Shown in pieces: positions 5,701 to 64,000 of a stretch of 64,000 bases of DNA. This DNA comes from an uncultured Bacilli bacterium (lineage in GTDB: Bacteria > Bacillota_I > Bacilli_A > RF39 > UBA660): contig CANRCR010000001.1 of the NCBI GenBank assembly GCA_947629165.1, positions 86,246 through 150,245 of the forward strand, written 5' to 3'. The notes below the pieces were generated by a model, which did not search any database, was not told the origin of the DNA, and saw nothing but the letters and a program-made list of their open reading frames with translations. Made by a program: the position numbers and the translations under genes. The first letter of the stretch is position 1. Each line of letters begins with the position of its first letter.

Positions 5701-5938
5701 GATATTCTTTCCATAAATCAATTCCTAATTGATAGGTGGCAGGCTCTAATTTTCCTTTTAACGCTGCAATAATGGACTCTGGATTTCCTTTATAAAAAAC
5801 TTTCCACTTTTTTTGCGCAGTGTCGAGTAGTAATTGTGCATCTTGCATACTTATTTGAACCCCTTTTTCTTTCGCATACTGGATAATGTCTTTTGTCGTT
5901 AAATTTTTTATATATTGACTGATTAGGTATTCGTACAT
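5672..5938 (-). CDS. Small hypothetical protein (88 aa)
   Basis: Intact ORF on the minus strand, convergent with paralog B. RBS aggagga (rev-comp tcctcct) immediately upstream of the ATG. Confidence 0.5.
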   Translation of the reverse strand: MYEYLISQYIKNLTTKDIIQYAKEKGVQISMQDAQLLLDTAQKKWKVFYKGNPESIIAALKGKLEPATYQLGIDLWKEYQNKITDNHP

Positions 5939-6008
5939 GATTTCCTCCTATCTTAAAATATGAGGATAATTTAAAGAAAATAACCGAAACTATAGATGAG
6001 GGATATAC

Positions 6009-11012: not shown

Positions 11013-11089
<77 letters not shown>

Positions 11090-11152: not shown

Positions 11153-11244
11153 TTTCTTGACGATTATTTGTCAATTCATTTTTACTTTTTTTATTATTTC
11201 GAATATAATAAAATTAAAGTTATAAAAATAGAAAGGAGTATTTA

Positions 11245-11385
11245 TAACTAGCGCTAGGACCAGGATGGTTGACGAGGTTAACAGTGGTCGAAAGATTCAG
11301 CGGATGCTGTTACGGATACTACGTTCGTTAGACTATTCAAAAAAGACAAAATTAAAATTGTAACAAAGGAATAGTTTAGTAGTAG
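11245..11385 (+). ncRNA. glmS ribozyme (GlcN6P-responsive self-cleaving riboswitch) in the glmS leader
   Basis: Leader contains AGCGCUAGGACCAGG...GACGAGG...CGGAUGC, which matches the conserved glmS ribozyme core blocks (AGCGCC.G..., GACGAGG, GGAUGCC). It is positioned directly 5' of glmS, as in Gram-positives. Confidence 0.65.
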
Positions 11386-11396
11386 GAGGTTATAAT

Positions 11397-13163
11397 ATGT
11401 GTGGTATTGTAGGATACCTAGGAAATAGAAAAGCAATTCCTGTAATTATGCAGGGGTTAAAGAGTTTGGAATATCGTGGTTACGATTCTTCTGGAATTGC
11501 GTACGTTCAAGATCAGATGATTCACGTACTAAAAAAAGAAGGAAAAATAGAAAATTTAGATACCCTGTTGGATTATGATACGGATACCTATTTAGGAATC
11601 GCCCATACAAGGTGGGCTACGCATGGGAAGGCAAACGATATTAATGCTCATCCTCATACTTCAGGAAAAATCACTTTAGTTCATAATGGAATTATTGAAA
11701 ATTATGCCCAATTAAAGAAAAAACTCATTGAAAAAGGAAAAACTTTTGTCAGTGAAACCGATACGGAAGTCGTTGCTTGTTTACTCGATACTCTTTATGA
11801 AGAAACCAAAGATTTACTTAAAGCAATTGCACTTTTATCTGAAAAGGTAATCGGTTCTTATGCGTTAAATATTCTTTGTGAAGATGAACTCGATACTTTG
11901 TATGCCGTTCGAAAAGATAGTCCTTTGATTGTTGGAAGGGGGAATCAGGAATTTATTTTAGCGAGTGATATTCCAGCTTTACTTCCTGTTACGAATCATT
12001 ATTATCTTTTAGATAATTATGAAATTGTTAAAATAACCAAAGAAGGGATTTCTTTCTATGATCAAAAGTTAAATAAAATTACGAAAGTAGAACAGGAATA
12101 TACGGGTGACTTGGAAGTTTCTTCTAAAAAAGGATACGACCACTTTATGTTAAAGGAAATCAATGAACAACCGGAAGTAATTAAAAACTTACTTGCAAAA
12201 TATGTTGTAGAAGATCATCTTCAAAATGTTTTCGATATCAAAAAATATCAAACCATTGAAATTGTTGCCTGTGGAAGTGCCTATCATGCAGGTTTAATTG
12301 GCAAGTATTATTTGGAAAATTTAGCATCGATTCCAACGCGTGTCACTTATTCTTCCGAATATCGTTATCAGAAGAATTTCTTTGATAAGAATAATTTAGT
12401 TATTGTAATTTCACAATCTGGAGAAACGGCGGACACGTTAGCTGCTTTGAAATTAGCCAAAGAGCATGGAATCGACACGTTAGCGATTGTCAATGTGGTT
12501 TCTTCTTCGATTGCCCGTGAAGCAGATCATGTATTTTATACGGATGCCGGTATTGAAGTTGCGGTAGCGACTACCAAAGCTTATTTTGCTCAAGTAGTAT
12601 CGTTATTACTTCTTGCCGTGGCAACCTTAAAAGAACAAGCATCGATTCTTGCTTCATTGAAACAACTACCTTCGCTTATTTCGAAATATATTCATCATTT
12701 TGATTATGAAACACTTGCGAAACGTTTTATAGGTCGGGAACATATTTTCTATTTAGGAAGAGGCGTTGACTTTTCACTCGCAATGGAAGGAAGTTTAAAA
12801 TTAAAAGAAATTTCTTATATCCATAGTGAAGCTTATCCTGCTGGAGAATTAAAACATGGAACGATTTCACTAGTGGACGAAGAAACTGGAATTATTGCGG
12901 TTGTACTCGATCATACCATTAAAGAAAAGACGATTAGTAACTTGAAAGAAGTTGCTTCAAGGGGTGCTCAAGTGGTTGCTATTACGAACGATGCTACCGA
13001 TGAATTTTGTGATGAAAAAATACTTCTCGAAGATTATGATGCAGTGATTAATCCGTTAGTTGCGATTATTCCTATGCAATTATTAGCTTATCATGTTGCC
13101 AAGTTAAAAAAATGTGATATTGATAAACCACGCAATCTTGCGAAATCGGTTACCGTGGAATAA
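11397..13163 (+). CDS. glmS: Glutamine--fructose-6-phosphate aminotransferase
   Basis: N-terminal MCGIVGY (Ntn Cys). Two SIS domains. 588 aa. RBS taggaggtt. Confidence 0.9.
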   Translation: MCGIVGYLGNRKAIPVIMQGLKSLEYRGYDSSGIAYVQDQMIHVLKKEGKIENLDTLLDYDTDTYLGIAHTRWATHGKANDINAHPHTSGKITLVHNGIIENYAQLKKKLIEKGKTFVSETDTEVVACLLDTLYEETKDLLKAIALLSEKVIGSYALNILCEDELDTLYAVRKDSPLIVGRGNQEFILASDIPALLPVTNHYYLLDNYEIVKITKEGISFYDQKLNKITKVEQEYTGDLEVSSKKGYDHFMLKEINEQPEVIKNLLAKYVVEDHLQNVFDIKKYQTIEIVACGSAYHAGLIGKYYLENLASIPTRVTYSSEYRYQKNFFDKNNLVIVISQSGETADTLAALKLAKEHGIDTLAIVNVVSSSIAREADHVFYTDAGIEVAVATTKAYFAQVVSLLLLAVATLKEQASILASLKQLPSLISKYIHHFDYETLAKRFIGREHIFYLGRGVDFSLAMEGSLKLKEISYIHSEAYPAGELKHGTISLVDEETGIIAVVLDHTIKEKTISNLKEVASRGAQVVAITNDATDEFCDEKILLEDYDAVINPLVAIIPMQLLAYHVAKLKKCDIDKPRNLAKSVTVE

Positions 13164-23239: not shown

Positions 23240-25948
23240 GTGAAGTATATGAAGAAACAACGAAATGTTCGGCCATATCTTATTACGAGTGGTATTATAT
23301 TAGGTATTTTTACACTTTTATTTTGTGTCAAAGGAATTTATCCTTTTGGTAATAATTCACTTATTTGGGGCGATATGCACGACCAAGTAACCGCTTTTTA
23401 TTATCATTTTTATGATGTCTTTCATGGCGATGCTTCTTTACTTGTCAATTTCAGTACGAGTGGAGGTATCAATTTTTTAGGAATTTTAGCTTATTATCTA
23501 TTAAGTCCCATCAGTTTTTTGATATTACTTTTTCCACGAAATGATATCTATCAAGCAATCTCTATTTTAATTGCAATTAAAGTATTACTATCGGGTTTAA
23601 CTTGTCTTTACTTTATTCGAACTTATTTTAAAAATACCCCTCATTATATCAGTGTTTTACTAGCTATCTTATATGCTTTTTCAGGCTATCAACTATTACT
23701 TTATCAAATTACGGCTTGGATCGATATCGTATACTTATTCCCACTTTTATTAATTGGACTTAAAAAGGTACTTGATCTTGAAAGTCCGGTAGGTTATACG
23801 CTTCTTCTTGCACTTTGTTTTATCTTTTCATTTTATTTAGCCGTACTTTTAGTTTTCTTCTTATTCTTTGTATCTTTCATTTATCTTTATTATTTTCGTC
23901 CGAAAGAAACACATAAGAAGGCAATTGTCGGTTTAGGAATATCGACGGTTCTCGCTTTGCTTTTATCTTGTTTCGTTTTACTTCCAGCGGTTGGACAAAT
24001 TTCGGTTTCATCTCGTGTTGGATTTAATATTAATACTTTATTAAATTCAAAGTTTGGGGCATTAAACGATAAACTTTGTTTCTTTATTACTGCTTCTTTT
24101 TCGATTGTCGGCGCACTTCTTTTGATGGTTACTGGATGGAAGAAAAAGAAACATAAAAATGTGGTTTTGTTCTTTTTAACTTGTTTTGTTCTTTTACTTA
24201 TTCCGGTCTTTATCGAACCCGTAAATAAGATGTGGCATCTCGGATCTTATGCTTTTTTCCCTCTTCGAACGGGATTTGTTCTTTTGTTTTTATTATTAAT
24301 TGCCACGCTTTACTATTTTACCCATTTATCGAAAGAAAAACCGTTTCCGAAAAAGAATATTATTTATGCTATTTTGATTACGATTGCTGTCGTAGTTACC
24401 AACGTTACGATTACGGTATGTAACTATCGCTTTTTACAAAATAAAATCTATGGTATCTCTTTAGGAAAAGATGTTCAGGTAGCGGCAACGTTATTAATCA
24501 TGATGGCTATTTTTGCCCTTGGTATTTTCTTAATTCTTTGGCTACATCATTTCTGTTATAGTAAACTTACTTTCACTTTTATTTGGATTTTAGCTTTGAC
24601 TAATATTTTGTGTTGTTCTTTCTTGTACTTTGGTATCGATTCTCATCAAAAAGAATTAACCGGAGTCTATGTCGACATGCAAGAGATGAGTACTTCTTAT
24701 CAAGAAGACGATTATATGCGCGTGAAGGATTTATATCCAAAGTTAGTTATGAATAATGGAATGGTTACTCGGTATCATACGTTAGATCATTTTACTTCGT
24801 TAACCGATAAAAGTAATATGGAAACGTTAAAGAAGATGGGTTATTCTTCCTATTGGGTTAAAACTTATTCGATTGGCGGAACTCTTTTCAGTGATGCGGT
24901 TCTTGCTAACCAATATTTGATTAGTAAAGATCCGTATATTAATCCTTACTATTCTTATGTAACTAACTATGGTGATTTCTTATTCTATCGTCATAATTTG
25001 GAGATTCCGTACGGTCTTATGATCGATCATGATGTTTCAATTATGGACTTTGACAATGCTTTTGAAATTCAAAATGCCATTTATCAAGGTATCACTGGGG
25101 AAGCGGATTCTATATTTACAATCAGTGATACTCCTTGGACTAGAAAGAATTTATTCTGTTTTAAAGAAAAAGAGACGGATACTTTCAATCGGTATCTTAT
25201 TCGTAAAAATGAACGAATTGCTTATTTAGAAAAAGAAATTGATGTTAAAGGAAGACAAAATTTATATTTGGAATTGTTACTTTCGATCGACAACACGAAA
25301 AATAGTGAGATTTTAGAAAGTACCAATATTTATATCAATGGCAAACTTTATCGGGAAAAGTTCCCAGAAGAGATCGATAACGGTTTACTTGACTTAGGTA
25401 TCTTCGAGGATGAAAAAGTAAAAATTCGAATCGAATTCAATAAATCGACTTATTTTAGCGTTATCGAAGTAGGAATGTTGGATTTAGACCGATATGAATC
25501 TTTTGTTGCTAACGAAAAACTTCCACTTACTATCGACTTTACTAGAAATGAAATTCATGTTCAAGTTCCGAGTGATAAAGCGGGTGTACTGTTCTTACCG
25601 ATTGCTTATAACGACGGTTATGACGTTACCGTTAATGGAACGCATCAAGAAGTCCTCGATTTGTTCGATAACTTTTTAGGAGTCAAGGTCGAAGAAGGGG
25701 ATAATGAGATTGTCTTCACTTATACTCCTCCTTACTTTAAAATCGGATGTCTTATTAGTATCGTTGCCCTTATCGGTATGCTTCTTCTTTATGGTACACG
25801 GCTTTACGAACGAATTTTATCATTTCACCTTCTTCAGAATATTGCTTATTATCTTTATTTAGGAATCTATTTGATACTACTCGTAGCCTTTTATATCGTA
25901 CCAATTTTAGGATTCTTGTTATCTTTCTTCTTTTATATTAAATTATAG
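23240..25948 (+). CDS. YfhO-family polytopic membrane protein (putative glycosyltransferase for cell-envelope glycopolymers)
   Basis: 902 aa with more than 12 TM helices. The N-terminal region (GIYPFGNNSLIWGDMHDQ...) is typical of the YfhO family. Confidence 0.65.
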   Translation: MKYMKKQRNVRPYLITSGIILGIFTLLFCVKGIYPFGNNSLIWGDMHDQVTAFYYHFYDVFHGDASLLVNFSTSGGINFLGILAYYLLSPISFLILLFPRNDIYQAISILIAIKVLLSGLTCLYFIRTYFKNTPHYISVLLAILYAFSGYQLLLYQITAWIDIVYLFPLLLIGLKKVLDLESPVGYTLLLALCFIFSFYLAVLLVFFLFFVSFIYLYYFRPKETHKKAIVGLGISTVLALLLSCFVLLPAVGQISVSSRVGFNINTLLNSKFGALNDKLCFFITASFSIVGALLLMVTGWKKKKHKNVVLFFLTCFVLLLIPVFIEPVNKMWHLGSYAFFPLRTGFVLLFLLLIATLYYFTHLSKEKPFPKKNIIYAILITIAVVVTNVTITVCNYRFLQNKIYGISLGKDVQVAATLLIMMAIFALGIFLILWLHHFCYSKLTFTFIWILALTNILCCSFLYFGIDSHQKELTGVYVDMQEMSTSYQEDDYMRVKDLYPKLVMNNGMVTRYHTLDHFTSLTDKSNMETLKKMGYSSYWVKTYSIGGTLFSDAVLANQYLISKDPYINPYYSYVTNYGDFLFYRHNLEIPYGLMIDHDVSIMDFDNAFEIQNAIYQGITGEADSIFTISDTPWTRKNLFCFKEKETDTFNRYLIRKNERIAYLEKEIDVKGRQNLYLELLLSIDNTKNSEILESTNIYINGKLYREKFPEEIDNGLLDLGIFEDEKVKIRIEFNKSTYFSVIEVGMLDLDRYESFVANEKLPLTIDFTRNEIHVQVPSDKAGVLFLPIAYNDGYDVTVNGTHQEVLDLFDNFLGVKVEEGDNEIVFTYTPPYFKIGCLISIVALIGMLLLYGTRLYERILSFHLLQNIAYYLYLGIYLILLVAFYIVPILGFLLSFFFYIKL

Positions 25949-26070
25949 TTTGAAAAGGAATAAAGTAATTGACTTTGTTCTTTTTTTTAATTAGAATAAT
26001 TGACTACAATTAGTTTCATATAAACATGGATTAATTATTTGGTAAATCCATTTTGAAGAGAGTGATTCTT

Positions 26071-26904
26071 ATGGAAAAATTTACTTTAACTCTTTTAACG
26101 GCGCAAGAAATTGGACGGGTAGGAGCAACTGATTCCGTTGAACCAATTTATTATTTGGAATGTAGGCCAACTTCCTTTGCACTTGCGACGGGTGCTTATA
26201 ATGAGGGCTTTTATTGGACTCGTTCTTGGCGTGACTCAGGAGGCCTTTTCTGTTCTCGTAATGGCGATCCTGCCACTTGCCGTTACGAGGGGATTCGTCC
26301 GGTTTTATGTCCGAAAGATGAAAGTTTCTATCAACAACTTTTAGATGAAAGTACGATTTTTCAAAGTTCGCTTTACCATGATCATGCACCGCTTGTATTT
26401 TATGGCGAATATCCGTGTGAAAAGGTTTCGGATGAGGAACAACTTAATTTAGAAACGGATTATAAAAATGAACGTTTGAGCACTACTTCAAAAATATATA
26501 CGTTTGATTCCAATGTCCCACATGCGTCGGGATTTGCTTTTGCTCCTGAAACTTATCTGGAATTTGAATGTTTAGGAGAAAAATATATTCGTTATAAGAG
26601 TTATTACTCAAAATATGAAGGAAATTGGTTTCGAGTACAACCCATTCCGTGGTATATCGATTTAAAAAATCATCGTTTAATTTCGCAAAATATTCTTGTT
26701 GCCGGTATTCAGTTTAACGATCTTTTACAACCGGATGGTATCGATTTTGAAAAGACCCGTATGAAATGGTATCTCGATACTCATTTAGCTCCTAATATTT
26801 TGCCTTCGCACGAAAGCATCTTACAGCAAAATGAACCTTTACGACAATTTGTTTATCGTAAATCTTATTCTAATCGACAAAAAAAGGAAAACGAAGATAG
26901 GTGA
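26071..26904 (+). CDS. DUF6273-like family paralog 1 (function unknown)
   Basis: Start taken at the ATG at 26071 (MEKFTLTLLT...). Shares WT/WYW and RYEGIRPV N-terminal signatures, and C-terminal FYGEYP...WFRVQPIPWYIDL...LISQNILVAGIQF, with four other proteins in this window. Confidence 0.6.
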   Translation: MEKFTLTLLTAQEIGRVGATDSVEPIYYLECRPTSFALATGAYNEGFYWTRSWRDSGGLFCSRNGDPATCRYEGIRPVLCPKDESFYQQLLDESTIFQSSLYHDHAPLVFYGEYPCEKVSDEEQLNLETDYKNERLSTTSKIYTFDSNVPHASGFAFAPETYLEFECLGEKYIRYKSYYSKYEGNWFRVQPIPWYIDLKNHRLISQNILVAGIQFNDLLQPDGIDFEKTRMKWYLDTHLAPNILPSHESILQQNEPLRQFVYRKSYSNRQKKENEDR

Positions 26905-26908
26905 TTTT

Positions 26909-27775
26909 ATGGATTTTAAGATATCAATTCCTAGTGCTTACGATATTGGAAGAGCATCCTCTATTTCGAAAGCAGATAATAATCCGCCTTCCTATTTAAG
27001 TGCTTATGCCATGTTTAAAATACATCCTAAGTTAGCTATTCCACTTACTGATTTTGCAATGGTGGTTACACCGAGTCGCTATTCGACTCCGTTTTGGACT
27101 AAAACACCTTTTGATGATCAAATGTATAATTCTTCGTATTTTTCTTATCCGTATGCTACTAATATTTCCGTTTTACCAACATTAAAACCTTCGGAGTCGC
27201 TCTATAAAGATTTGTTTTTAGAGGGAAATTTTTCAGAATCGATTCCAACGGTTCAATTTGGTACCTATCCACAAAATTATGTAACAGATGTAGCTCTTTG
27301 GACAGAATTGAACGAAGCATATCAAGCTAGGACATTACCCAAGACAGGAAACCAATATACTTTTTATCGGAACGAAGCACTCGGAAATTATAAGACGGGA
27401 AGGCTTTGCACTTATGAATCTTTTACTTGGGAAGATCGACAATTTCTTTTTCTTCCAAGTCTTAGAGAAACATTTGCTATTACCTATGATATTTTAGTTC
27501 TTCCCAATCAGCCTATTTGGATTGAAATTCTTCCGGTCGAGTGGAAGATCGATACAAAGCATCAGGTGCTTGTTGCTAGTAAAGTTTTACTTTCAGGTAT
27601 ACCACTTCACAATGACGACTGGTATTCGGGCGATTTTGAAGATAGTTTTTTATATGGCTATCTCAATCATCATTTTAAAAAGCAATTACTTTTTTCTTCA
27701 ACTCCCGTTTCATCCTTGGTCGATACGCATGAAGATTTAAATAAGTTGATGTATAAAAAATTTGGAAAAAGATAA
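26909..27775 (+). CDS. DUF6273-like family paralog 2 (divergent)
   Basis: Start at the ATG at 26909. C-terminal block FGTYPQ...PIWIEILPVEWKIDTKHQVLVASKVLLSGIPL parallels the other paralogs. The N-terminal part is more divergent. Confidence 0.55.
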   Translation: MDFKISIPSAYDIGRASSISKADNNPPSYLSAYAMFKIHPKLAIPLTDFAMVVTPSRYSTPFWTKTPFDDQMYNSSYFSYPYATNISVLPTLKPSESLYKDLFLEGNFSESIPTVQFGTYPQNYVTDVALWTELNEAYQARTLPKTGNQYTFYRNEALGNYKTGRLCTYESFTWEDRQFLFLPSLRETFAITYDILVLPNQPIWIEILPVEWKIDTKHQVLVASKVLLSGIPLHNDDWYSGDFEDSFLYGYLNHHFKKQLLFSSTPVSSLVDTHEDLNKLMYKKFGKR

Positions 27776-51864: not shown

Positions 51865-53652
51865 ATGAGTGTCATTCAAATTATGGAGGAAGATCTTGCG
51901 AATAAGATTGCCGCTGGAGAAGTAGTCGAACGAACTATGAATGTCGTCAAAGAATTAGTAGAAAATTCCATCGATGCTCAAAGTACCGAAATTAAAATTG
52001 AATTAGTCGATGCGGGTGTTAAAGAAATTCGGGTCATCGATAATGGAGTAGGGATGAGTAAAGAAGATGCGGTATTATCTTTTTCTCGACACGCGACTTC
52101 AAAACTAAAAAATATTGACGACTTATTTCATATTCATTCGCTCGGGTTTCGGGGAGAAGCACTCCCTTCGATTGCCGCTGTATCGCATCTTACGATGAAA
52201 ACAAGTAATCAAGAAGAGGGAACTTATATCGAAATTAATGGCGGTAAACTCGAAAAAGTAACGGCGTGTGATTTACGTCAAGGAACGGATATTACTGTTT
52301 CGGATTTATTTTACAATACGCCTGTCCGCCTTAAATATTTAAAAAATCTTTATACGGAACTTGCCCATATTACCGATTATGTTCATAAGATGGCGTTATC
52401 GTATCCTGCTATCCAATTCGTCTTAAAAAATAACGGAAAGCTTCTTTTGAGTACGGATGGAAGTAATCGTTTACTAAAAGTAATTAATGATATCTATGGA
52501 TTATCGGTCACTAAAAAGATGGTCGAAATCAAAGGTGAAAATGATGATTATACTGTTTCTGGATATATTTCTTATCCCGAACTTATGAAAAGTAATCGTA
52601 ATGCGGTTACTATCTTAGTTAATGGGCGATTTATTAAAAATACTGAACTTTTACGAACGATTGTCGATTGTTATCACACGTATATGCCACCGGATAAATA
52701 TCCGATTGTCGTTCTTAATATCGAAGCAGATCCGATTTTAATCGATGTAAATGTTCATCCTACAAAAATGGATATTAAGTTTTCTAAAATAGATTCTTTA
52801 AAAACTTTACTAACGTCTTTAATTACTGATCAGTTAGAACATCTCACTTTAATTCCCGATGCGTCTACTTCGACGGTCATGGAAGGAAACGAAACAAAGA
52901 TCAGTAATCATTACAGTACTCCTGCGGTCGATACTTTTAATCCTTCCGAAAAAGAACAAGAGTATGCGTCTTTTGAGAAAATGACATTCGATCTTGAAGT
53001 AAAAGAAGAAGATGCTATTACGGACCGATTAAAAGAAGAATTACCTTTCGAAGACGAAGAAGAAACTCCTCGTATTAAAGAAATGTATCCCGTTGGTTTA
53101 GTTCACGCGACTTATATTGTGGCCGAAAATGAAGGTGGTATGTTTTTGATTGATCAACATGCAGCGAACGAGCGAATTAACTACGAATATTATTTAAAAG
53201 AGATGAGTCGACCTAAAAAAGAAAAAATGGATTTATTGGTTCCGATTACTGTCGAGTTACCGAGTGATGAATATCTTATCTTAAAAGAAAATTTTGATGT
53301 GTTGGAACGGCTCGGTTTTGAGTTTGAAGAATTCGGATTTAACAGTATTGTCATTCGCACGATGCCCATTTGGTTACAACGAGCTCGTCAAGAGGATGCC
53401 ATTCATAAAATTATTGATATTATTATTGAAACCGAAGATTTTAATAGTGAAAAGTTCTTTCATTATATTGCAGCAACCGTGGCTTGTAAAGCTTCGATTA
53501 AAGCGAATGATTATATTACACTCGATGAGATGCGAACATTATTATCGCGCTTAAGAGCTTGTAAAAATCCATTTACTTGTCCACATGGAAGACCTACTAT
53601 TATTACGTATTCGAAATATGAGTTGGAACGTTTATTTAAACGTGCTATGTAG
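51865..53652 (+). CDS. mutL: DNA mismatch repair protein MutL
   Basis: GHKL ATPase N-terminus (IAAGEVVERTMNVVKELVENSIDAQ) and C-terminal dimerisation domain with DQHAANERI. Confidence 0.9.
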   Translation: MSVIQIMEEDLANKIAAGEVVERTMNVVKELVENSIDAQSTEIKIELVDAGVKEIRVIDNGVGMSKEDAVLSFSRHATSKLKNIDDLFHIHSLGFRGEALPSIAAVSHLTMKTSNQEEGTYIEINGGKLEKVTACDLRQGTDITVSDLFYNTPVRLKYLKNLYTELAHITDYVHKMALSYPAIQFVLKNNGKLLLSTDGSNRLLKVINDIYGLSVTKKMVEIKGENDDYTVSGYISYPELMKSNRNAVTILVNGRFIKNTELLRTIVDCYHTYMPPDKYPIVVLNIEADPILIDVNVHPTKMDIKFSKIDSLKTLLTSLITDQLEHLTLIPDASTSTVMEGNETKISNHYSTPAVDTFNPSEKEQEYASFEKMTFDLEVKEEDAITDRLKEELPFEDEEETPRIKEMYPVGLVHATYIVAENEGGMFLIDQHAANERINYEYYLKEMSRPKKEKMDLLVPITVELPSDEYLILKENFDVLERLGFEFEEFGFNSIVIRTMPIWLQRARQEDAIHKIIDIIIETEDFNSEKFFHYIAATVACKASIKANDYITLDEMRTLLSRLRACKNPFTCPHGRPTIITYSKYELERLFKRAM

Positions 53653-53662
53653 AGGGGATTTT

Positions 53663-54265
53663 ATGGAAATTAAATTTAATATGCAGACTGAGTATCAACG
53701 TGCTATGAAACTACGGCGAAAGGAATTTCCGTACGAGGCATTTGTTCAAGAACGAAAAGAACAAGCGAAAGTTTTTTTTGATACGTATTTCGATTTTTAT
53801 GGACCCGTGCTCGATACGGATTTGGTCGAATTTACGATGGATACCAATACGGGAGTGAGTGATTATTTTATTAATCCCGAAAAGAAATACAAAATGCGGT
53901 ATATCAGTCAAATTTCGATTGAGAACCGGCTTTCGAATAAAGTACCATACTTTTTGTTACCGGAATATTCTACGATTGTGGCCGCAGGGAGTTATCCTTT
54001 GTTAAATCGTTCAATTTTTGAAATGGCTACGCAAGAAGCAAGTTTCTTTTTCATGGGTGGTGTTTACGGTTCTATCCGAGATCCTTATTTTCTTCGTCAA
54101 GTTCAAAGTTACGAAAAATTAGCCGATCAATTAATGACTTATTATCGATTACCAGAATCGATTTTGGACCGGGTTCATTATGGTCCCGACAAACAATTTG
54201 TCTATGTCAATTATATGCAAGATATCGTCATTCCGTCTCCCAAATATTTTCGCTATTTGAGTTAG
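53663..54265 (+). CDS. Hypothetical protein (200 aa)
   Basis: ATG at 53663 behind gagggga; the ORF-track start overlaps mutL. Confidence 0.45.
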   Translation: MEIKFNMQTEYQRAMKLRRKEFPYEAFVQERKEQAKVFFDTYFDFYGPVLDTDLVEFTMDTNTGVSDYFINPEKKYKMRYISQISIENRLSNKVPYFLLPEYSTIVAAGSYPLLNRSIFEMATQEASFFFMGGVYGSIRDPYFLRQVQSYEKLADQLMTYYRLPESILDRVHYGPDKQFVYVNYMQDIVIPSPKYFRYLS

Positions 54266-57000: not shown

Positions 57001-58041
57001 ATGAAACATGAAATTGACCTCAGTCTTTATTCTATTCGAACGGATTTAGTTATCGATACCATTACGCAAGAACAGGCTTCTTTAGTTACCGAAAAGAAAA
57101 CAGCATACGATGCTATTTCTGTTTCCGAGGTAAATATCGATTCAAAAAACAGTGCACTTTTAGGCAAAAAAGAAGGAAAGTATATCACGATTAAATTTGA
57201 GGATGTCACCGATCACGTGAATCGGGCCAATTTAATTGAAGTGGTGACCCAAGAGTTACGGGAATTACTGGATTATTTGCATATTGCTCCTTCGGATAAA
57301 TGCTTTGTCGTAGGACTTGGAAATCGTAATTCTACGCCGGATGCTTTAGGCCCTAAAACACTCGATCAATGTTTTATTACCAAATATTTATTTGATATGG
57401 AAGGGGCAGAAGTGGAACCGGGAATTCGTAATGTATCTGGTTTTGTTCCTGGCGTCATGGGAAGTACAGGAATCGAAAGTAGCGATGTTATTTTAGGTAT
57501 TGTCGAAAAGACGAGGCCGGATTTTATTTTGGCTATCGATGCGTTAGCTTCTTCGAGTATGGAACGACTTTCTAAAACAATTCAAATGACCGATACTGGA
57601 ATCCATCCTGGAAGTGGGGTGGGAAATAGTCGGAAAGAAATCTCGCAAGCTACGATTGGAATTCCGGTGATTGCAATCGGTATTCCGATGGTCGTCGATT
57701 TGGCCACCATCGTGTCCGATACGATTCATTATTTTTTAAGACAGATGAGTTATAATAAAGAAAACTATTCGAAGGGAAGTCATAAATTAACGCCGGTTAC
57801 GGCAAGAAACTATTTGAAGCATCAAGAACATCTTTCTAAGGAAGAAAAAGAAAAATTACTGGGAATGGTTGGAACTCTTTCGGAAGAAGCTATTAAATCG
57901 TTAATGTTCGAAGTGTTAACGCCCATCGGTTTTAATATGATGGTAACTCCTAAGGAAGTCGATTTTGTCGTCGATTATTTAAGTGAAGTTTTAGGAAAAA
58001 GTATCAATCAGTCATTACATACTAAATCTTTGTCGAATTAA
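57001..58041 (+). CDS. gpr: Germination protease GPR (spore SASP endopeptidase)
   Basis: ...DLSLYSIRTDLVID...VVGLGNRNSTPDALGPKT...VPGVMGSTGIESSDVILGIV...PDFILAIDALAS...DTGIHPGSGVGNSRKEIS...IGIPVIAIGIP is collinear with B. subtilis GPR. Divergent from rpsT as in Bacillus. Confidence 0.85.
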   Translation: MKHEIDLSLYSIRTDLVIDTITQEQASLVTEKKTAYDAISVSEVNIDSKNSALLGKKEGKYITIKFEDVTDHVNRANLIEVVTQELRELLDYLHIAPSDKCFVVGLGNRNSTPDALGPKTLDQCFITKYLFDMEGAEVEPGIRNVSGFVPGVMGSTGIESSDVILGIVEKTRPDFILAIDALASSSMERLSKTIQMTDTGIHPGSGVGNSRKEISQATIGIPVIAIGIPMVVDLATIVSDTIHYFLRQMSYNKENYSKGSHKLTPVTARNYLKHQEHLSKEEKEKLLGMVGTLSEEAIKSLMFEVLTPIGFNMMVTPKEVDFVVDYLSEVLGKSINQSLHTKSLSN

Positions 58042-58134: not shown

Positions 58135-59127
58135 TTGTATCATCGTAAAAAAATCTATAAAAAATCACACCATCGTTCAATCTCATTAAAAATAAAATTA
58201 CTCTTTCTTTGTACTATTTTAATAAGTTGTATCTACTTTCTCTATCAAGGTGTTTTATGGCTTACCCAAACATCTTTTCATCTATCTTTTTTAGAACAAG
58301 TTTTAGAAGAAAGTATCCCTTATCCAAAGGAAAATAATTATTCTTTCAAGTGGGTTTCTTCACTTACGCATTTTTTAACACGTGTCAATGTTCAAGAACC
58401 TTCTTCTATTTTAAGTCAAGGTTCCGTTTATTTTGCAGAAAATGTTCCTCAAGAAGAACTTGTTTTTGATTCCCCTTTGCCATCACAAGAAGTTGCTCAA
58501 GATGATCCTCTTCCGATTGTTTATCTTTACAATAGTCATCCGAACGAAGAGTATAGTGCATCCAATCTTGAACCTTACAATATTACTCCTAACGTGACCA
58601 TGATCAATTATATTTTAAAGGAAAATTTAGCTAAACAAGGTATTTATTCCATAGTTGAAGAACAGAGTGTTCCTGAAATATTACGACTCCATCAATGGAA
58701 TTATGCTTCGAGTTACAAGGCGACTCGTCTCTTAATGGAAGATGCAAAAGAAAAGAATCCTCAACTTGTCTATTTTATCGATCTTCATCGAGATTCGGTT
58801 GGAAAAAGTATTTCGACCGCGACGATTCAAGGCCTTACTTATGCAAAAGTGCTATTTTTAATCGGTTTGGAAAATGAAAACTATGCTCCCAATCTCGCTT
58901 TTACTGAAAAAATCAACCAACGATTAGAAAGTACTTATCCCGGAATCAGTCGGGGTATCTATAAAAAAGAAGGTCCTGGAGTGAATGGGGTTTATAATCA
59001 AGATTTTAGTCCGCGAACGATTTTGATCGAAGTGGGTGGACAAGCGAATACTATCGATGAAGTTTTCCGTACTACGGAAGCGATTAGTAATGTATTAGGG
59101 GCCATTATTAAGGAGGAATCGGTATGA
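58135..59127 (+). CDS. spoIIP: Stage II sporulation protein P (SpoIIP, engulfment amidase/peptidase)
   Basis: 330 aa, N-terminal TM, located directly after gpr (Bacillus synteny). SpoIIP-like size and composition. Confidence 0.65.
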   Translation: MYHRKKIYKKSHHRSISLKIKLLFLCTILISCIYFLYQGVLWLTQTSFHLSFLEQVLEESIPYPKENNYSFKWVSSLTHFLTRVNVQEPSSILSQGSVYFAENVPQEELVFDSPLPSQEVAQDDPLPIVYLYNSHPNEEYSASNLEPYNITPNVTMINYILKENLAKQGIYSIVEEQSVPEILRLHQWNYASSYKATRLLMEDAKEKNPQLVYFIDLHRDSVGKSISTATIQGLTYAKVLFLIGLENENYAPNLAFTEKINQRLESTYPGISRGIYKKEGPGVNGVYNQDFSPRTILIEVGGQANTIDEVFRTTEAISNVLGAIIKEESV

Positions 59128-59450
59128 ATTGGAATCAGTTTGCAGGAATTAGTTTTTTACTTTTGTTTTTAGTTTTTGTAGGTCTTTATTTTACGGCTTC
59201 TAGTGGCTATTACGAAACGGAGGAACGTAAGAAGATGACCCTTACGGAAGAACAGATTGCGCTTTTTGAAAAAGATGTAGCGGAAGGAAAACAGATCGAT
59301 ATCGAAGATTACTTATCACTTCATGAAAAACATTATGACAATGCGATTTCGTCTACCACTTTATCTTTATCGCATAAGATTGGAGAATATTTTGAACAGG
59401 GACTCAACGCCTTTTTTGAAGCGATGGCAAGTGCTATGAATTCACAATAG
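59124..59450 (+). CDS. yqxA: YqxA-like small membrane protein (DUF3679)
   Basis: 108 aa, N-terminal TM, overlaps the spoIIP stop. It is in the position of B. subtilis yqxA. Confidence 0.5.
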   Translation: MNWNQFAGISFLLLFLVFVGLYFTASSGYYETEERKKMTLTEEQIALFEKDVAEGKQIDIEDYLSLHEKHYDNAISSTTLSLSHKIGEYFEQGLNAFFEAMASAMNSQ

Positions 59451-59494
59451 CACTTGTTTTTTTTAATTTTCCGTTATACTATAATAATTGTAGG

Positions 59495-60100
59495 GTGGTG
59501 TTTGGAATGAAGGAATCGGTTTTACCGAAAATTGTTTTCATCGATCAGGACGAATGTCTCGTTTCCGGAGGATGGCTTTATTTATTGAACGAATTTTTAG
59601 GAACACATTATGTTATGAGTGATTTTTCATCTTATTTTATCGAAGAGGAAGCCATTCAAGATCCGATGCTTCGAAAAGAGTTTTATCAATATCTTTTAAA
59701 TAAAAATATATATCGTTATGTCGAATATTTACCGGGTGCTTTAGCGGCCATGGAAAAGTTATGCCGAAGTTCTTTGTATCGGCCGTATATTCTAACAAGT
59801 TACAGTATTCCTCAAGTGTATGAATCGTGTGGTATTTTAGCTGCCCAAAAGCATGATTTCTTTGTTCGAACAATGCCTTTTTTACCACGTGGTCGGCTTT
59901 TATTGACGAGCGGGGATAAGATGATTTTTCGAGGCGATATTCGAATCGACGATCTCGTTAAAAATTTAGAAAATGCCGATCAAAAAATATTGATGACTTC
60001 ATTTCATAACGAAAAGGTGCCTATTCAAACACTAGAAGAACAGGGAATTATTCGAGTGAAAGATTGGTATGAAGTTGAAAAAGTATTAAAATTAAAGTAG
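59495..60100 (+). CDS. HAD-superfamily 5'(3')-deoxyribonucleotidase-like protein (putative)
   Basis: 201 aa. N-terminal KIVFIDQDECLVSG resembles a DxDx(T/V/C) HAD motif I of the NT5C-type. Confidence 0.35.
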   Translation: MVFGMKESVLPKIVFIDQDECLVSGGWLYLLNEFLGTHYVMSDFSSYFIEEEAIQDPMLRKEFYQYLLNKNIYRYVEYLPGALAAMEKLCRSSLYRPYILTSYSIPQVYESCGILAAQKHDFFVRTMPFLPRGRLLLTSGDKMIFRGDIRIDDLVKNLENADQKILMTSFHNEKVPIQTLEEQGIIRVKDWYEVEKVLKLK

Positions 60101-60113
60101 GGAGTGAATTTAA

Positions 60114-60752
60114 ATGAAAGAAAAAGAATATAATACTTCGGTTATCATAACGCATTTTGATGTCGATTGGATGCGCATTAAATCTGCCTGTATGACAACG
60201 ATTAGTAAACAGGCTGGAACTAAAGAACCATCGGGATTATGGAAAAAGAAACTTTTAATCTGTCGCCATTCTCCTATCCGAAGAGGGGAAGTGAGTTGGA
60301 AATGGCCACAAATACCTTACGCTATTTCGACACATTTTGCACGGCATCACGAAGGATGCGAAAAGTTTATTGGAACGGAACGTACGGATCGTACGAATGT
60401 CGATCGTGAAACAAGAAGTCAAATGAATTATGTTCCAATGGAAATGGATGCCAATTTACAAGCGTTAATGAGTATTTCAGAACGGCGACTCTGTACGAAT
60501 GCCGACCCGCTTACTCGCAAATATTGGAGTTCACTTGTGGATGCACTTCAAGCCTATGATCCTTATGTCGCTTGGAGTAACGTTCCTCAATGTGTTGTTC
60601 GAGGGGGATGTTGTGAACCTTTCAGTCCTTGTCTTTTCTATGACAACTTAATGAAAGATGCCACCGAAGAAGAAAAAACATCACTTATTAAACGTTACGA
60701 TTTTTATAATCGAAAAACACGGGGATTAGTTCTTCCAACCGATACGAAATAA
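60114..60752 (+). CDS. Cys/His/Arg-rich hypothetical protein with elevated GC
   Basis: 212 aa with RBS tagggagtg. Composition is visibly GC-richer (about 40+%) than the flanks. No family recognised with confidence. Confidence 0.5.
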   Translation: MKEKEYNTSVIITHFDVDWMRIKSACMTTISKQAGTKEPSGLWKKKLLICRHSPIRRGEVSWKWPQIPYAISTHFARHHEGCEKFIGTERTDRTNVDRETRSQMNYVPMEMDANLQALMSISERRLCTNADPLTRKYWSSLVDALQAYDPYVAWSNVPQCVVRGGCCEPFSPCLFYDNLMKDATEEEKTSLIKRYDFYNRKTRGLVLPTDTK

Positions 60753-60843
60753 ATCCTTTGAAAAGGCTTTTTTCTTTACTTTTAAAACTAAAGAAATTAT
60801 AATAAAAAGTACTTTATTTTATCGATTAAGGAGCAATTTTTCT

Positions 60844-61692
60844 ATGAATAATTATGAACTTTCTATACTTTCCTATAAAGATGTGCATGGCGATGAAAAT
60901 ACGGATTCCATTATTAAAAATCATAGAAAAGCGGAAATTACGGATTTTGCGCTTCTTTTAGGTGGGGAAAGTACCGAGACAGGAACTTGGTGGTATTGGA
61001 TTAATGGAGTCAATACTCCTTACAGTGCTGTCGATTCTACTGGGCGTTTCTGTAATACCCGTCTTTCTCGGCGTAGTGGCGGAATACGTCCTTGTTTAAA
61101 AGTTTCTAACTTGAGTCGGATTCCTTACGAAATAATCGAAAATAGATTTGTAGAAGAAGTGATTTTCGGCGAATATCCGCAGTTTTCTGCTCGTACTTTG
61201 TCTCCTATATTAGAAAATGAGTATCAAAATGGTTTGCTTTCGGAAAGTGGTAAATATTACTCGAGTGATTCTCAAGAATGGACAGAGGAAGAGGGACCTT
61301 TTAAAGAACGCCGATTCACCGAATATATTTATCATAATCGGAAATTTATTCGTGTCATCGGGGATGAGAATGGCATAAATAATCATTTAAGTGATGGGGA
61401 AACTGTATATGTTGGGACCCCTTATTGGTTGGAAGTAACCCCTGTTCATTGGTATTTAGATGAAGCAAACCAGCAACTTATTTCACGTTATATTTTAGTT
61501 TCTGGTGTTCGTTATAGTAATCGTTCGAGTAAAATTATTACTGAGAGTGAAATTTATCATTTTTTACAAGATTATATGTTAGGTAATATTTATAATTCTT
61601 CTGATACTTCAATTTTGGGCCATAACAAGGATTTACGTAGCTTTGTCTATCGAAAAAAGATGTCCAAAAAAGCCACGTCAGGGGATGAGTAA
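60844..61692 (+). CDS. DUF6273-like family paralog 3
   Basis: N-terminus YELSILSYKDV...ITDFALLLGG...TWWYWING...RRSGGIRPCLKV. C-terminus FGEYPQF...YWLEVTPVHWYLD...LISRYILVSGVRY. Confidence 0.6.
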   Translation: MNNYELSILSYKDVHGDENTDSIIKNHRKAEITDFALLLGGESTETGTWWYWINGVNTPYSAVDSTGRFCNTRLSRRSGGIRPCLKVSNLSRIPYEIIENRFVEEVIFGEYPQFSARTLSPILENEYQNGLLSESGKYYSSDSQEWTEEEGPFKERRFTEYIYHNRKFIRVIGDENGINNHLSDGETVYVGTPYWLEVTPVHWYLDEANQQLISRYILVSGVRYSNRSSKIITESEIYHFLQDYMLGNIYNSSDTSILGHNKDLRSFVYRKKMSKKATSGDE

Positions 61693-62490
61693 ATGAATAC
61701 TTTCAAATTGTCTTTACCTACGTATCAAGATTTACATGAAGGAGTTTATTATCCGCTCGATGTTTGTGCAAGAGCTACAGATTATGCTTTTCTAACTGGA
61801 TGTGGCGGTTCCTTTGATCATTACGGTTGGTACTGGCTCAAAGCAGATAATAGTTCCGTTAATTCGGTTTCTACGACAGGTGGGATTTCTTCAGAAAATA
61901 AAGGACGTCGTTGTGGGGGAATACGACCTTCTATTTATGTTGCATCGTTACTTCCTTCTTCTAAGAAAATTATATCTTTCGGTGAATATCCTCAATTTTA
62001 CGATTATAGCGATAATGAGGAAATCGAATCTGCCTTTCAACGCAATCAACTTAGTCCTACTGGAAAGTTCTATTCGCTCGATAGTTGTCATTGGAATGAT
62101 GTCGATTCTCCTTTTCAACTTCGAAGATTTCCTGAATATAAATATAATAACAAAAAATATATCCGCTTGGTCGGGGATTTTAATAGCGATGGCGCTATTC
62201 TTAATAATGGAGAACGAGTCGTCGAAAATAATCCGTATTGGATCAAGGTAGAACCGATTCTTTGGATTCCTGATTATGACCACCATCTACTTCTATCAAA
62301 ATATGTTCTTTTATCGGGAATTCGTTATCATAGCGACATCTTTTATGATTCTTTTGATAATACTGAAATGAATAACTATCTTAGTAAATATATGACGCAA
62401 GAAATTAGCCCAGATGCATATCAGTCGACAGTTATTGATCATCATCCTAATTTACAACAATTTATTTACCGTAAACTTCCTAGAAAATAA
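61693..62490 (+). CDS. DUF6273-like family paralog 4
   Basis: FKLSLPTYQDL...ATDYAFLTGCGG...YGWYWLKAD...RRCGGIRPSIYV; FGEYPQF...YWIKVEPILWIPD...LLSKYVLLSGIRY. Start is 1 nt after the paralog 3 stop. Confidence 0.6.
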   Translation: MNTFKLSLPTYQDLHEGVYYPLDVCARATDYAFLTGCGGSFDHYGWYWLKADNSSVNSVSTTGGISSENKGRRCGGIRPSIYVASLLPSSKKIISFGEYPQFYDYSDNEEIESAFQRNQLSPTGKFYSLDSCHWNDVDSPFQLRRFPEYKYNNKKYIRLVGDFNSDGAILNNGERVVENNPYWIKVEPILWIPDYDHHLLLSKYVLLSGIRYHSDIFYDSFDNTEMNNYLSKYMTQEISPDAYQSTVIDHHPNLQQFIYRKLPRK

Positions 62491-62536
62491 TTTACTTTAA
62501 TCGATACCAGCGTTATAATAGGTATACTTTCTCGTT

Positions 62537-63340
62537 TTGTGGGGTGAATCTATGGAAAAATATAAACTCACTTTAATGAATAAAGATGATTTTCAATTTC
62601 TTTCGGGAAACTATGCTATTATGATCGATAGTGAAGCACGTGCGACCGATTTACATATTCTTTCAGGGGGTGGAGCCACCTCTCGCTTTGTTGCTTGGTA
62701 TTGGATTACGAGGTGCAATAACAATTCGAATAATTGTGTCAATTCGGATGAACATATTTCTGTTGAACGTGAAACCCGTCGTTGTGGAGGCATTCGTCCG
62801 GTTATTGAAGTGGAAGATTTAAATGATATTTCTTATATCCCTCAAGATAATGGGAAAGTTCTTTTTGGGGAGTACCCACAATTTTATGTTCCAGATCTTA
62901 GTCCCGAGTTAGAAAGAGTTTATCAAAACGGAATGCTTTCTACTACGGAAAGACATTATTCGCTCGATGGTACCTTTTGGCAATATGAGTCTCCTGATTT
63001 TAAACTTCGCACTTTTCGTGAATACACTTATAAGGATCGTCATTTTATTCGCTTTGTGGGGGACGAGAACGGTTGCCATGAAAATTTATGGAACTTGGAT
63101 AAAATAGAAATGAATAAAGCTTATTGGATTGAGGTAAAACCGGTTACTTGGTATTTAGATGAAAATAGACAACGACTTATTTCCAAATATGTTCTTCTTT
63201 CGGGCATTCGTTATGTCGATTTAGAATCCTATTTAAAATTATATATGACTCCGGAAATTGCTTCACGCCGTTCCAATTCATTTATTTTAGATTCGAATCA
63301 AGATTTACGTAGTTTGGTATATCGTAAAATTAAAAAATAG
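62537..63340 (+). CDS. DUF6273-like family paralog 5
   Basis: YKLTLMNKDDF...ATDLHILSGGG...VAWYWITRCN...RRCGGIRPVIEV; FGEYPQF...YWIEVKPVTWYLD...LISKYVLLSGIRY. Confidence 0.6.
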   Translation: MWGESMEKYKLTLMNKDDFQFLSGNYAIMIDSEARATDLHILSGGGATSRFVAWYWITRCNNNSNNCVNSDEHISVERETRRCGGIRPVIEVEDLNDISYIPQDNGKVLFGEYPQFYVPDLSPELERVYQNGMLSTTERHYSLDGTFWQYESPDFKLRTFREYTYKDRHFIRFVGDENGCHENLWNLDKIEMNKAYWIEVKPVTWYLDENRQRLISKYVLLSGIRYVDLESYLKLYMTPEIASRRSNSFILDSNQDLRSLVYRKIKK

Positions 63341-63417
63341 AAAAAAAGGGAAGGAAACTTTACCTTTTCTTTTGGTTTAATTTTTAGTATAATAAGTTTA
63401 GTTTAGAGGTGGATTCC

Positions 63418-64000
63418 ATGCGACAAGATTTTATTCGAAATTTTTCTATTATTGCCCATATCGACCATGGGAAAAGTACCTTGGCAGATCGTATTTTAGA
63501 AGTGACCGGAGCAGTTTCTAAAAGAGAAGCGAAGAATCAACTTTTAGACAACATGGATATCGAACGGGAACGGGGTATCACGATTAAGTTAAATGCCGTT
63601 CAACTAACGTACACCTACCAAAATCAAACGTATTATTTACATCTTATTGATACGCCGGGACACGTCGATTTTAGTTATGAAGTGAGTCGTAGTTTAGCTG
63701 CCTGTGAAGGAGCTCTTCTCGTTGTCGATGCCGCGCAAGGGGTGGAAGCCCAAACATTGGCAAATCTATATCTTGCGATGGAACATGACCTTACGATTAT
63801 TCCCGTGATTAATAAAATTGATTTACCGAATGCCGATGTTGAAAAGGTCAAAAGAGAACTTGTCGAAGAACTTGGCTTTCGGGAAGATGAAATTCTTTTG
63901 ACAAGTGCTAAAAATGGAACTGGAATCGTCGAACTAATCGAAGCCATTATTACACGCATTCCTGCGCCGAAAGGAAATCCTAAAGCACCGTTACAAGGAC
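63418..64000 (+). CDS. lepA: Elongation factor 4 (LepA), N-terminal part; 3' end outside the window
   Basis: [28 protein letters not shown]... (G1), ...DTPGHVDF (G3), NKIDL (G4). RBS agaggtgg. The minus-strand ORF 63675..63959 is an antisense artefact. Confidence 0.9.

Follow-up and report, generated by a model that had tools for sequence, protein, structure and literature searches.

A divergent ThyX-fold gene with phage affinity and a lectin-like paralog array at a variable junction between yqxA and lepA in uncultured gut Bacilli

Introduction

In Bacillus subtilis the genes gpr, spoIIP, yqxA and lepA follow one another in this order, with yqxA and lepA directly adjacent. In a 64 kb stretch of contig CANRCR010000001.1 from an uncultured Bacilli bacterium (the window, which here means the whole stretch analysed) five additional genes lie between the yqxA-like gene and lepA, at 59495–63340. 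The question raised by this locus is what these genes are and how they came to lie there. An earlier reading of the bare sequence, referred to here as the original prediction, had described them as one five-gene island interrupting a conserved block, and both the five co-directional open reading frames (ORFs) and the surrounding arrangement of rpsT (on the opposite strand), gpr, spoIIP, the yqxA-like gene and lepA are confirmed, with Pfam matches for gpr and spoIIP and a canonical N-terminus for lepA. The explanation that appears reasonably probable is that of an ancestral accessory islet, composed of a phage-type ThyX-like module and a lectin-like array, which has since been remodelled and whose composition has ameliorated. 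As a genomic island the locus is ordinary and does not represent a new kind of mobile island; its most interesting component is a phage-type, cysteine-bearing ThyX-like gene, which belongs to a large family missed by current hidden Markov model (HMM) libraries.

The yqxA–lepA junction among relatives

Relatives were gathered by a scan with the Gpr protein, keeping one genome per species, and the window proteins were mapped onto the resulting 80 loci. All 80 are from metagenome-assembled genomes (MAGs) of uncultured gut Bacilli; rabbit is the source of many, and some bear the label Tenericutes, Mollicutes or Erysipelotrichaceae. The islet content of the window is common only to the three closest species (L004, L005 and L011; Gpr 77–80 % identical). 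In five more distant relatives (L006, L021, L050, L054 and L061) the gap between yqxA and lepA is 77–244 bp, and six or seven relatives that keep the block carry unrelated cargo of 0.5–1.6 kb at the same junction. This cargo consists of hypothetical ORFs of 152–201 aa in L022, L056 and L030, a kinase-like ORF of approximately 267 aa in L064 (3874–4680) and L077 (5737–6540), and a reverse-strand ORF in L010. The kinase-like ORF of L064, the sole copy scanned, gave faint PADLOC matches to PD-T4-6 (E 0.003–0.006). The yqxA–lepA junction is a small variable slot between core genes, and with empty sites in five relatives and other cargo elsewhere the proposed insertion into a Bacillus-type block holds at lineage level. 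The gpr–spoIIP–yqxA–lepA block itself is not universal there, since 19 other loci have yqxA but no lepA in the fetched downstream sequence (3.4–8.8 kb) and 43 of the 80 have no spoIIP/yqxA adjoining gpr.

Among the four genomes that share the islet, L011 (the same locus as L137) has the NT5C gene, the ThyX-like gene and four paralogs, and L005 has the NT5C gene, the ThyX-like gene and at least two paralogs up to the contig end. In L004 the ThyX-like gene directly follows the intergenic region after yqxA, there is no NT5C gene, and a Fic-domain gene replaces the paralogs. These differences contradict a single five-gene island, as does the occurrence of paralog-family members elsewhere in the window and, as single genes, in other chromosomes. 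The window, L011, L005 and L004 can be aligned over the intergenic stretches that follow yqxA and precede lepA, a sign of a single ancestral insertion that was later remodelled internally. A search for presence/absence polymorphism among relatives had been suggested as a check; polymorphism at the junction is indeed found, but the three closest species share the content and its composition is native, as befits an old insertion. The islet is an old, ameliorated, mosaic insertion and not one acquired five-gene operon.

The features of the locus, with coordinates in the window, are as follows.

Left of gpr, minus strand: rpsT
57001–58041, plus strand: gpr, germination protease (Pfam Peptidase_A25, 3.6e-108), left part of the conserved block
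58135–59127, plus strand: spoIIP (Pfam SpoIIP, 2.7e-52)
59124–59450, plus strand: yqxA-like gene, small membrane protein of 108 aa, left border of the islet
59451–59506, plus strand: intergenic region with promoter-like TATACT/TATAAT, kept in the window, L011, L005 and L004 (alignment A5)
59495–60100, plus strand: NT5C-family 5′(3′)-deoxyribonucleotidase of the HAD type (PF06941), probable real start ATG 59507
60114–60752, plus strand: divergent protein of 212 aa with predicted ThyX fold, four conserved extra cysteines and phage affinity
60775–60803, plus strand: promoter-like TTTACT-17-TATAAT upstream of paralog 1, a consensus match only
60844–61692, plus strand: paralog 1 (282 aa) of a rare DUF6273/C-type-lectin-like family
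61693–62490, plus strand: paralog 2 (265 aa), its start abutting the stop of paralog 1
62491–62519, plus strand: second copy of promoter-like TTTACT-17-TATAAT, upstream of paralog 3
62537–63340, plus strand: paralog 3 (267 aa), probable start ATG 62552
63344–63373, plus strand: terminator-like hairpin followed by a T-run, end of the islet
63418–64000, plus strand: 5′ part of lepA, right border
26053–26904, plus strand: fourth member of the paralog family, outside the islet (hmmsearch with the A4 profile, 2.4e-45)
26831–27775, plus strand: fifth member of the paralog family, outside the islet (hmmsearch with the A4 profile, 3.2e-34)

The starts of lepA (63418), the NT5C gene and paralog 3 are corrected ones, the latter two being likely. 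The start of the yqxA-like ORF overlaps the stop of spoIIP, and the ORF is kept 3′ of spoIIP in 37 related loci at 31–78 % identity; it has no Pfam match, and its identification is thus based on position, size and conservation in relatives. The region upstream of lepA, with GTATAAT, is kept in L011 and L004.

Composition was assessed over the 63 ORFs of the window (mean GC content 0.346, standard deviation 0.027). The gene for the 212 aa protein has a GC content of 0.399 (z = +2.0), a third-position GC content (GC3) of 0.296 (z = 0.6) and a codon-usage distance of z = −0.4; the other four islet genes lie within one standard deviation of the window mean in GC, GC3 and codon usage. The 212 aa gene had been singled out as richer in GC than everything around it, but the lepA fragment is higher at 0.412 and gpr, at 0.380, is similar. 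Nor did a gene-by-gene check reveal the expected foreign composition, GC3 and codon usage being native for all five genes. Since this includes the 212 aa gene, its GC excess derives from the amino acid content of a conserved Arg/Cys/Gly-rich protein, and an origin of the excess in foreign DNA is rejected.

No integrase or transposase is found among the five ORFs in Pfam, PHROGs and NCBIfam scans, in agreement with the original prediction, and in the same scans none of the five matched a phage structural family. No direct repeats or att sites were found at the islet borders. A 33 nt AT-rich imperfect inverted repeat (79 % complementary) is situated exactly at the borders (59454–59486 and 63310–63342), probably by chance in AT-rich DNA. 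Of the hallmarks of mobile islands and prophage remnants, mobility genes, direct repeats and deviant composition are therefore absent, and presence/absence polymorphism is present.

The 212 aa protein is a divergent member of the ThyX superfamily

The product of 60114–60752 is a highly conserved, very divergent ThyX-superfamily member. Its AlphaFold model is confident (predicted local distance difference test, pLDDT, 84.7; predicted template modelling score, pTM, 0.84) and displays the ThyX α/β fold. The statement that this protein belongs to no recognisable family is accurate as far as sequence libraries are concerned, but not for the modelled fold. PADLOC gave no match, the best PHROGs match had an E value of only 0.02, and the gathering score of PF02511 (Thy1) is not reached. 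Homology to ThyX is bridged by relatives 38–41 % identical to the protein (P0147, P0140, P0256 and others), which pass the Thy1 cut-off with 25–38 bits vs 24.8, P0256 covering all of the Thy1 profile.

Profile A1, made from close homologues, retrieved only chance VEGF matches in PDB and gave a probability of 0.5 % against Thermotoga maritima ThyX. The link to ThyX appeared only with profile A3, built from 60 diverse family members of 28–75 % identity. When A3 was searched against PDB sequences only ThyX chains ranked at the top (E 0.036–0.05), and its hhalign comparison with T. maritima ThyX gave a probability of 77.8 % and an E value of 1.9e-5 over 141 columns. Relatives in GenBank phages are 33–46 % identical; for some the annotation reads ‘ThyX protein’ or ‘FAD-dependent thymidylate synthase’, and the second of these names was assigned by structure comparison.

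In the hhalign alignment the residue pairs (window/T. maritima) are H52/H53, S53/T55, P54/P56, R77/R78, H78/H79, N114/N163 and R125/R174; T. maritima R147 falls in a gap, with window R98 and R101 nearby. We take H53, T55, E58, R78, R90, R147, N163, R165 and R174 of T. maritima ThyX to be dUMP- or FAD-contacting residues. The ThyX signature RHRX7S corresponds to R77-H78-H79-X8-T88-x-R90 in the window protein, in which the third arginine is not kept and the spacing is one residue longer. Within the family R77, H78 and R90 are at least 90 % conserved; R125 is also conserved, and together with R77 and R90 it corresponds to dUMP-binding arginines. The stretches CRHSP and ARHH, for which metal binding had been raised, are by hhalign ThyX-type active-site motifs, and the candidate metal site lies elsewhere. 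Four cysteines are extra with respect to T. maritima ThyX: in 60 sequences C127 and C166 never vary, and conservation of C160 and C173 is 90 % or higher. From their conservation, C127, C160, C166 and C173 may form a structural, redox-metal or Fe–S site.

The protein is like the flavin-dependent thymidylate synthases (FDTS, ThyX; PF02511; TM0449, M. tuberculosis ThyX, PBCV-1 A674R) in its counterparts of H53, T55, P56, R78, H79, N163 and R174, in the nucleotide-metabolism neighbourhoods of the phage members of its family and in the intermediate members that pass Thy1. It is unlike them in that it is 9–15 % identical to solved ThyX structures, has no direct HMM match and carries the signature RHH-X8-T; additionally, its C-terminal region is replaced by a segment with C160, C166 and C173, kept along with C127.

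Phage neighbourhoods and bacterial copies

A word-indexed search returned 769 homologues of the 212 aa protein, and the best 120 of these are 66–99 % identical to it and without a Pfam domain. An exhaustive phmmer search of 1.84 billion cluster representatives found 774 at E ≤ 1e-3 and 400 at E ≤ 1e-10. In IMG/VR a homologue is present at 51 loci on contigs of 6.8–181 kb, mostly 65–181 kb, the 181 kb contig carrying a 71 %-identical copy. Together with L001–L003 these make up a set of 54 phage-type loci, the neighbours of which were clustered and scanned with Pfam. Thymidine kinase is encoded in approximately 23 of the 54, usually directly upstream of the ThyX-like homologue, and NrdD (the anaerobic ribonucleotide reductase), NrdG (its activase), dUTPase, DUF1599, RuvC and class-V aminotransferase recur nearby. 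On L001–L003, contigs of approximately 185 kb, 75 %-identical copies are surrounded by small hypothetical genes, and HslV-like, Lon-like and endonuclease VII matches occur among the neighbours. The closest non-orthologue, P0003 (77 % identical), is flanked by genes for DNA polymerase III alpha and a RecD2-type helicase. For Clostridium phage FA67 the annotation is too sparse to be informative.

A conserved phage module extends across about a dozen IMG/VR contigs of 66–131 kb (L102–L114 and L121). Its order is RuvC-like, unknown 200 aa, NrdD, thymidine kinase, ThyX-like, unknown 198 aa, NrdG, DUF1599, dUTPase and class-V aminotransferase (cysteine-desulfurase-like), followed by an opposite-strand tail-fibre gene. 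Among distant ThyX-like members, P0138, P0158 and P0256 contain HNH or I-HmuI-type homing endonuclease domains. P0224 is fused to an N-terminal nucleotide-kinase (guanylate/dNMP-kinase-like) domain, and P0192 is a member with a GH108 lysozyme and a peptidoglycan-binding domain.

Bacterial copies also occur at loci other than lepA: between the leuS region and cse60/femAB/nrdD in GCA_947627225.1, and between ruvB and queA–tgt in another MAG. These copies (L143, 3334–3954, and L135, 8001–8621) are single ThyX-like genes, 69–73 % identical, in housekeeping blocks of related bacteria. In a neighbour-joining tree the four lepA-locus copies form one clade, the sister of which comprises the leuS-locus copy and the ~185 kb elements, and the two together are nested within viral copies. 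Identity is 71–78 % among the orthologues and 75–77 % to phage copies. No canonical ThyA or ThyX was found by tblastn (E. coli ThyA and T. maritima ThyX as queries) in 2.1 Mb of fetched flanks, a result that is uninformative for whole genomes.

Named phage counterparts are gp64 of Thomasclavelia phage TR-TP1, a ‘FAD-dependent thymidylate synthase’, and a ‘ThyX protein’ of bajarodcaudo virus 1, which belong to the same extended family and are 37–41 % identical to the window protein; TR-TP1 gp64 is part of a module with NrdD/NrdG and a dUTPase-like gene. Both are encoded in phage genomes, whereas at least four bacterial species carry the window gene singly in the chromosome, where, unlike the phage copies, it is fixed between sporulation and translation genes. 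Sharing of thyX between viruses and hosts has reportedly been seen in ANME-1 archaea, a case that differs in concerning another domain of life and canonical ThyX. Virus–host dynamics in ANME-1 are the subject of a study in which thyX is mentioned 30 times (Laso-Perez et al. 2023, PMC9894754).

The NT5C gene and the function of the module

The first islet ORF, described as HAD-like, is indeed so and belongs to the NT5C family. It matches PF06941 at 2.4e-16 (60.6 bits vs a cut-off of 24.8; profile positions 3–174 of 180) and phrog_420 at 2.3e-18, and its translation contains both HAD motifs, the DxD of motif I (FIDQDEC) and the DD of motif IV (IRIDDL). Orthologues in L005 and L011 are 62–64 % identical. 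NT5C-class enzymes dephosphorylate dUMP and dTMP and form substrate cycles with thymidine kinase. The nearest phage relatives are 5′(3′)-deoxyribonucleotidases of the SPbeta/phi3T type, 27 % identical; phage phi3T also carries a thymidylate synthase (thyP3). The resemblance to SPbeta/phi3T modules with a YorS-type 5′(3′)-deoxyribonucleotidase is one of family membership. For the window NT5C, by contrast, close homologues in phages are lacking, and the phage loci that carry the ThyX-like gene do not encode it. A 201 aa gene upstream of the L001 phage copy was considered as an NT5C homologue and rejected.

Together with the ThyX-like protein, which may produce dTMP, the nucleotidase would adjust the dTMP/dUMP pool. 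A different role of the ThyX-like protein is imaginable but unlikely, namely that it is another pyrimidine-nucleotide-modifying enzyme, such as a methylase or hydroxymethylase of UMP/dUMP or dCMP, comparable to PolB, or one that supplies precursors for modified phage DNA, with the bacterial copies retained for a different purpose. The altered signature, the four added conserved cysteines and the failure of the Pfam Thy1 model to recognise the window protein would suit such an enzyme, as would the recurrence of DUF1599 (‘nucleotide modification associated domain 1’) and class-V aminotransferase in the phage neighbourhoods. Against this, a dTMP synthase is classically accompanied by thymidine kinase, dUTPase and NrdDG, and the counterparts of the dUMP-binding arginines are conserved. 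Additionally, single chromosomal copies in sporulating bacteria, amid lepA, ruvB–queA and leuS, fit core metabolism better than DNA hypermodification.

A more ambitious proposal, for which the chances appear rather slim, is that the 212 aa protein represents an uncharacterised ThyX-fold class with a four-cysteine metal or Fe–S centre and an altered flavin/substrate pocket. Such a class would be widespread in large gut phages and would have been taken up several times into housekeeping blocks of sporulating, uncultured Bacilli (lepA, ruvB–queA, leuS). It might be the sole thymidylate synthase there, possibly with another electron route or pyrimidine product.

The lectin-like paralogs and the Fic replacement

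The last three ORFs are tandem paralogs, as proposed, with 35–42 % mutual identity and the common motifs GIRP, FGEYPQ and YW..V.P..W. To our eye GIRP, FGEYPQ and W..V.P..W recall DUF6273, in what looks like a permuted order. The family is rare: searching with one sequence yielded 2 homologues, and searching 5.8 billion proteins with a profile yielded 31, none of the 31 with a precomputed Pfam domain. Copy number is three in the window and four in L011, and the paralogs of L011 and L005 are about 30 % identical to the window copies, though Gpr is 78–80 % identical. In other related chromosomes the family is represented by lone members amid housekeeping genes. Within the window, the tandem pair at 26053–26904 and 26831–27775 is located between a gene for a YfhO membrane protein (23240–25948) and proS. 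This pair falls within a region of the era–recO ... glyQS type, and an antisense ORF over it (26081–26389, GC 0.43) is an apparent GC anomaly arising from greedy ORF calling.

The AlphaFold model of the paralog is confident (pLDDT 86.4), and its top fold match is a DUF6273-bearing immunoglobulin A (IgA) peptidase (PMC12402451), followed by C-type lectins. DUF6273 (PF19789) is not matched by the three window paralogs at E ≤ 0.1, nor by paralog 1 up to E ≤ 10; one of nine family members reaches it at E 0.015, below threshold. The description ‘DUF6273-like’ is thus weakly supported, drawing on that one member and on the top fold match, while the window copies themselves have no Pfam match. No signal peptide is visible in the N-termini, and the paralogs gave no PDB sequence match of value, no BFVD fold match and no GenBank phage match; none of the fetched phage loci contains them. 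The relation to the N-terminal domain of the T. ramosa IgA peptidase and to phage tentaclins targeted by diversity-generating retroelements (DGRs) lies in the relative that reaches DUF6273; in contrast to those proteins, the window paralogs have no Pfam match, signal peptide, anchoring domains or DGR and are stand-alone proteins of ~270 aa in tandem arrays. A DGR was rejected here, as the window lacks both an ORF of 250 aa or more that bears YxDD and any repeat of paralog DNA beyond the paralogs themselves that could serve as a template. The paralogs are probably cytoplasmic ligand-recognition proteins that diversify rapidly.

In L004 the place of the paralogs is taken by a gene for a 246 aa Fic protein (5759–6499, plus strand), which matches the PADLOC candidate PDC-S04 at 4.5e-100 and SoFic at 9.6e-24. 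This replacement could suggest that the slot is a small anti-phage defence islet, in which the array diversifies recognition and the NT5C and ThyX-like proteins alter the nucleotide pool during infection. The varying cargo of the junction among relatives is compatible with such a role, as are the very fast divergence and variable copy number of the paralogs and the use of DUF6273/C-lectin domains elsewhere as variable ligand-binding modules (PMC10743442). The idea is nevertheless improbable: the five window proteins have no PADLOC match at E ≤ 0.01, the paralog family also occurs singly among housekeeping genes, and neither a reverse transcriptase nor a template repeat is present in the window. 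Moreover, the ThyX-like gene is under strong purifying selection and is found in unrelated housekeeping contexts as well.

Transcription

The gaps between genes are 44–56 bp (yqxA to NT5C), 13 bp (NT5C to the ThyX-like gene), 91 bp (ThyX-like gene to paralog 1), 0 bp (paralog 1 to paralog 2) and 46–61 bp (paralog 2 to paralog 3). Identical TTTACT-17-TATAAT sites are found ahead of paralogs 1 and 3, and a separate, conserved GTATAAT lies upstream of lepA. One operon, as the co-directional genes with short gaps had been taken to allow, is unlikely because of the promoter-like sites in the 91 bp and 46 bp gaps and the terminator-like hairpin after paralog 3. The signals are suggestive of three units instead, which may comprise NT5C with the ThyX-like gene, paralogs 1 and 2, and paralog 3.

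Other features of the window

Away from the islet, a tRNA gene is located at 11013–11086, and a glmS ribozyme (11239–11385; Rfam RF00234, 64.7 bits) lies immediately upstream of a 588 aa ORF (11397–13163). Between mutL and miaA, a 226 aa ORF (53585–54265, plus strand) matches no Pfam family above threshold and is 39 % identical in L011 vs 73–82 % for its neighbours, a fast-evolving gene in a conserved block.

Discussion

On the reading favoured here, the islet would have entered the yqxA–lepA slot in an ancestor shared by the window genome and at least three sister species, and then been remodelled while its base composition and codon usage became native. One part would be a two-gene deoxypyrimidine module, composed of NT5C and a ThyX-like gene with nearest relatives in large gut phages. 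The ThyX-like protein may bind dUMP and flavin in the manner of ThyX and make dTMP, with the nucleotidase bleeding off dUMP or dTMP and so balancing the pool. The four added cysteines could hold a structural or redox metal. The other part, the three-paralog array, would expand, contract and be replaced independently of the first, and exchange of cargo may proceed by homologous recombination through the flanking core genes.

Several observations weigh against this reading. The 212 aa protein has no match in Pfam (E ≤ 0.1), NCBIfam or PDB (phmmer). In place of RHRX7S it has RHH-X8-T, and R56 and Q116 stand where T. maritima ThyX has E58 and R165, so that flavin binding or substrate could differ. 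Neither L004 nor any fetched phage locus has NT5C, and hence the pair is not obligate; the pairing with the ThyX-like gene is a local feature of this clade. The tree loosely favours transfer from phage to host, more than once, but the direction is not secure because the tree is without support values and the protein is very conserved. Lastly, the counts of promoter-like and terminator-like sites are not above shuffled expectation.

That the five genes were instead ancestral to the block and deleted in other lineages is hardly credible, for although content shared with all three closest species, conserved borders, native composition and the many relatives without an intact block could be so explained, yqxA and lepA are directly adjacent in five distant relatives, unrelated cargo occupies the same junction in others, and the ThyX-like gene is nested in phage diversity and has other loci in other bacteria.

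The array of paralogs offers a compact case of a fast-evolving lectin-like family, in a slot that in a sister species holds a candidate defence gene. For the ThyX-like gene the implications depend on its activity. If the product is an active thymidylate synthase, it would add to FDTS a large family of at least 770 clusters at 50 % identity that HMM libraries miss, and the four added cysteines would be a new feature for mechanistic explanation. A gut bacterial lineage would then rely on a phage-type enzyme for dTMP, and uncultured Bacilli could be wrongly called thymidine auxotrophs in metabolic reconstruction. The finding would also bear on inhibitors targeted at ThyX and on how phage auxiliary genes become host genes.

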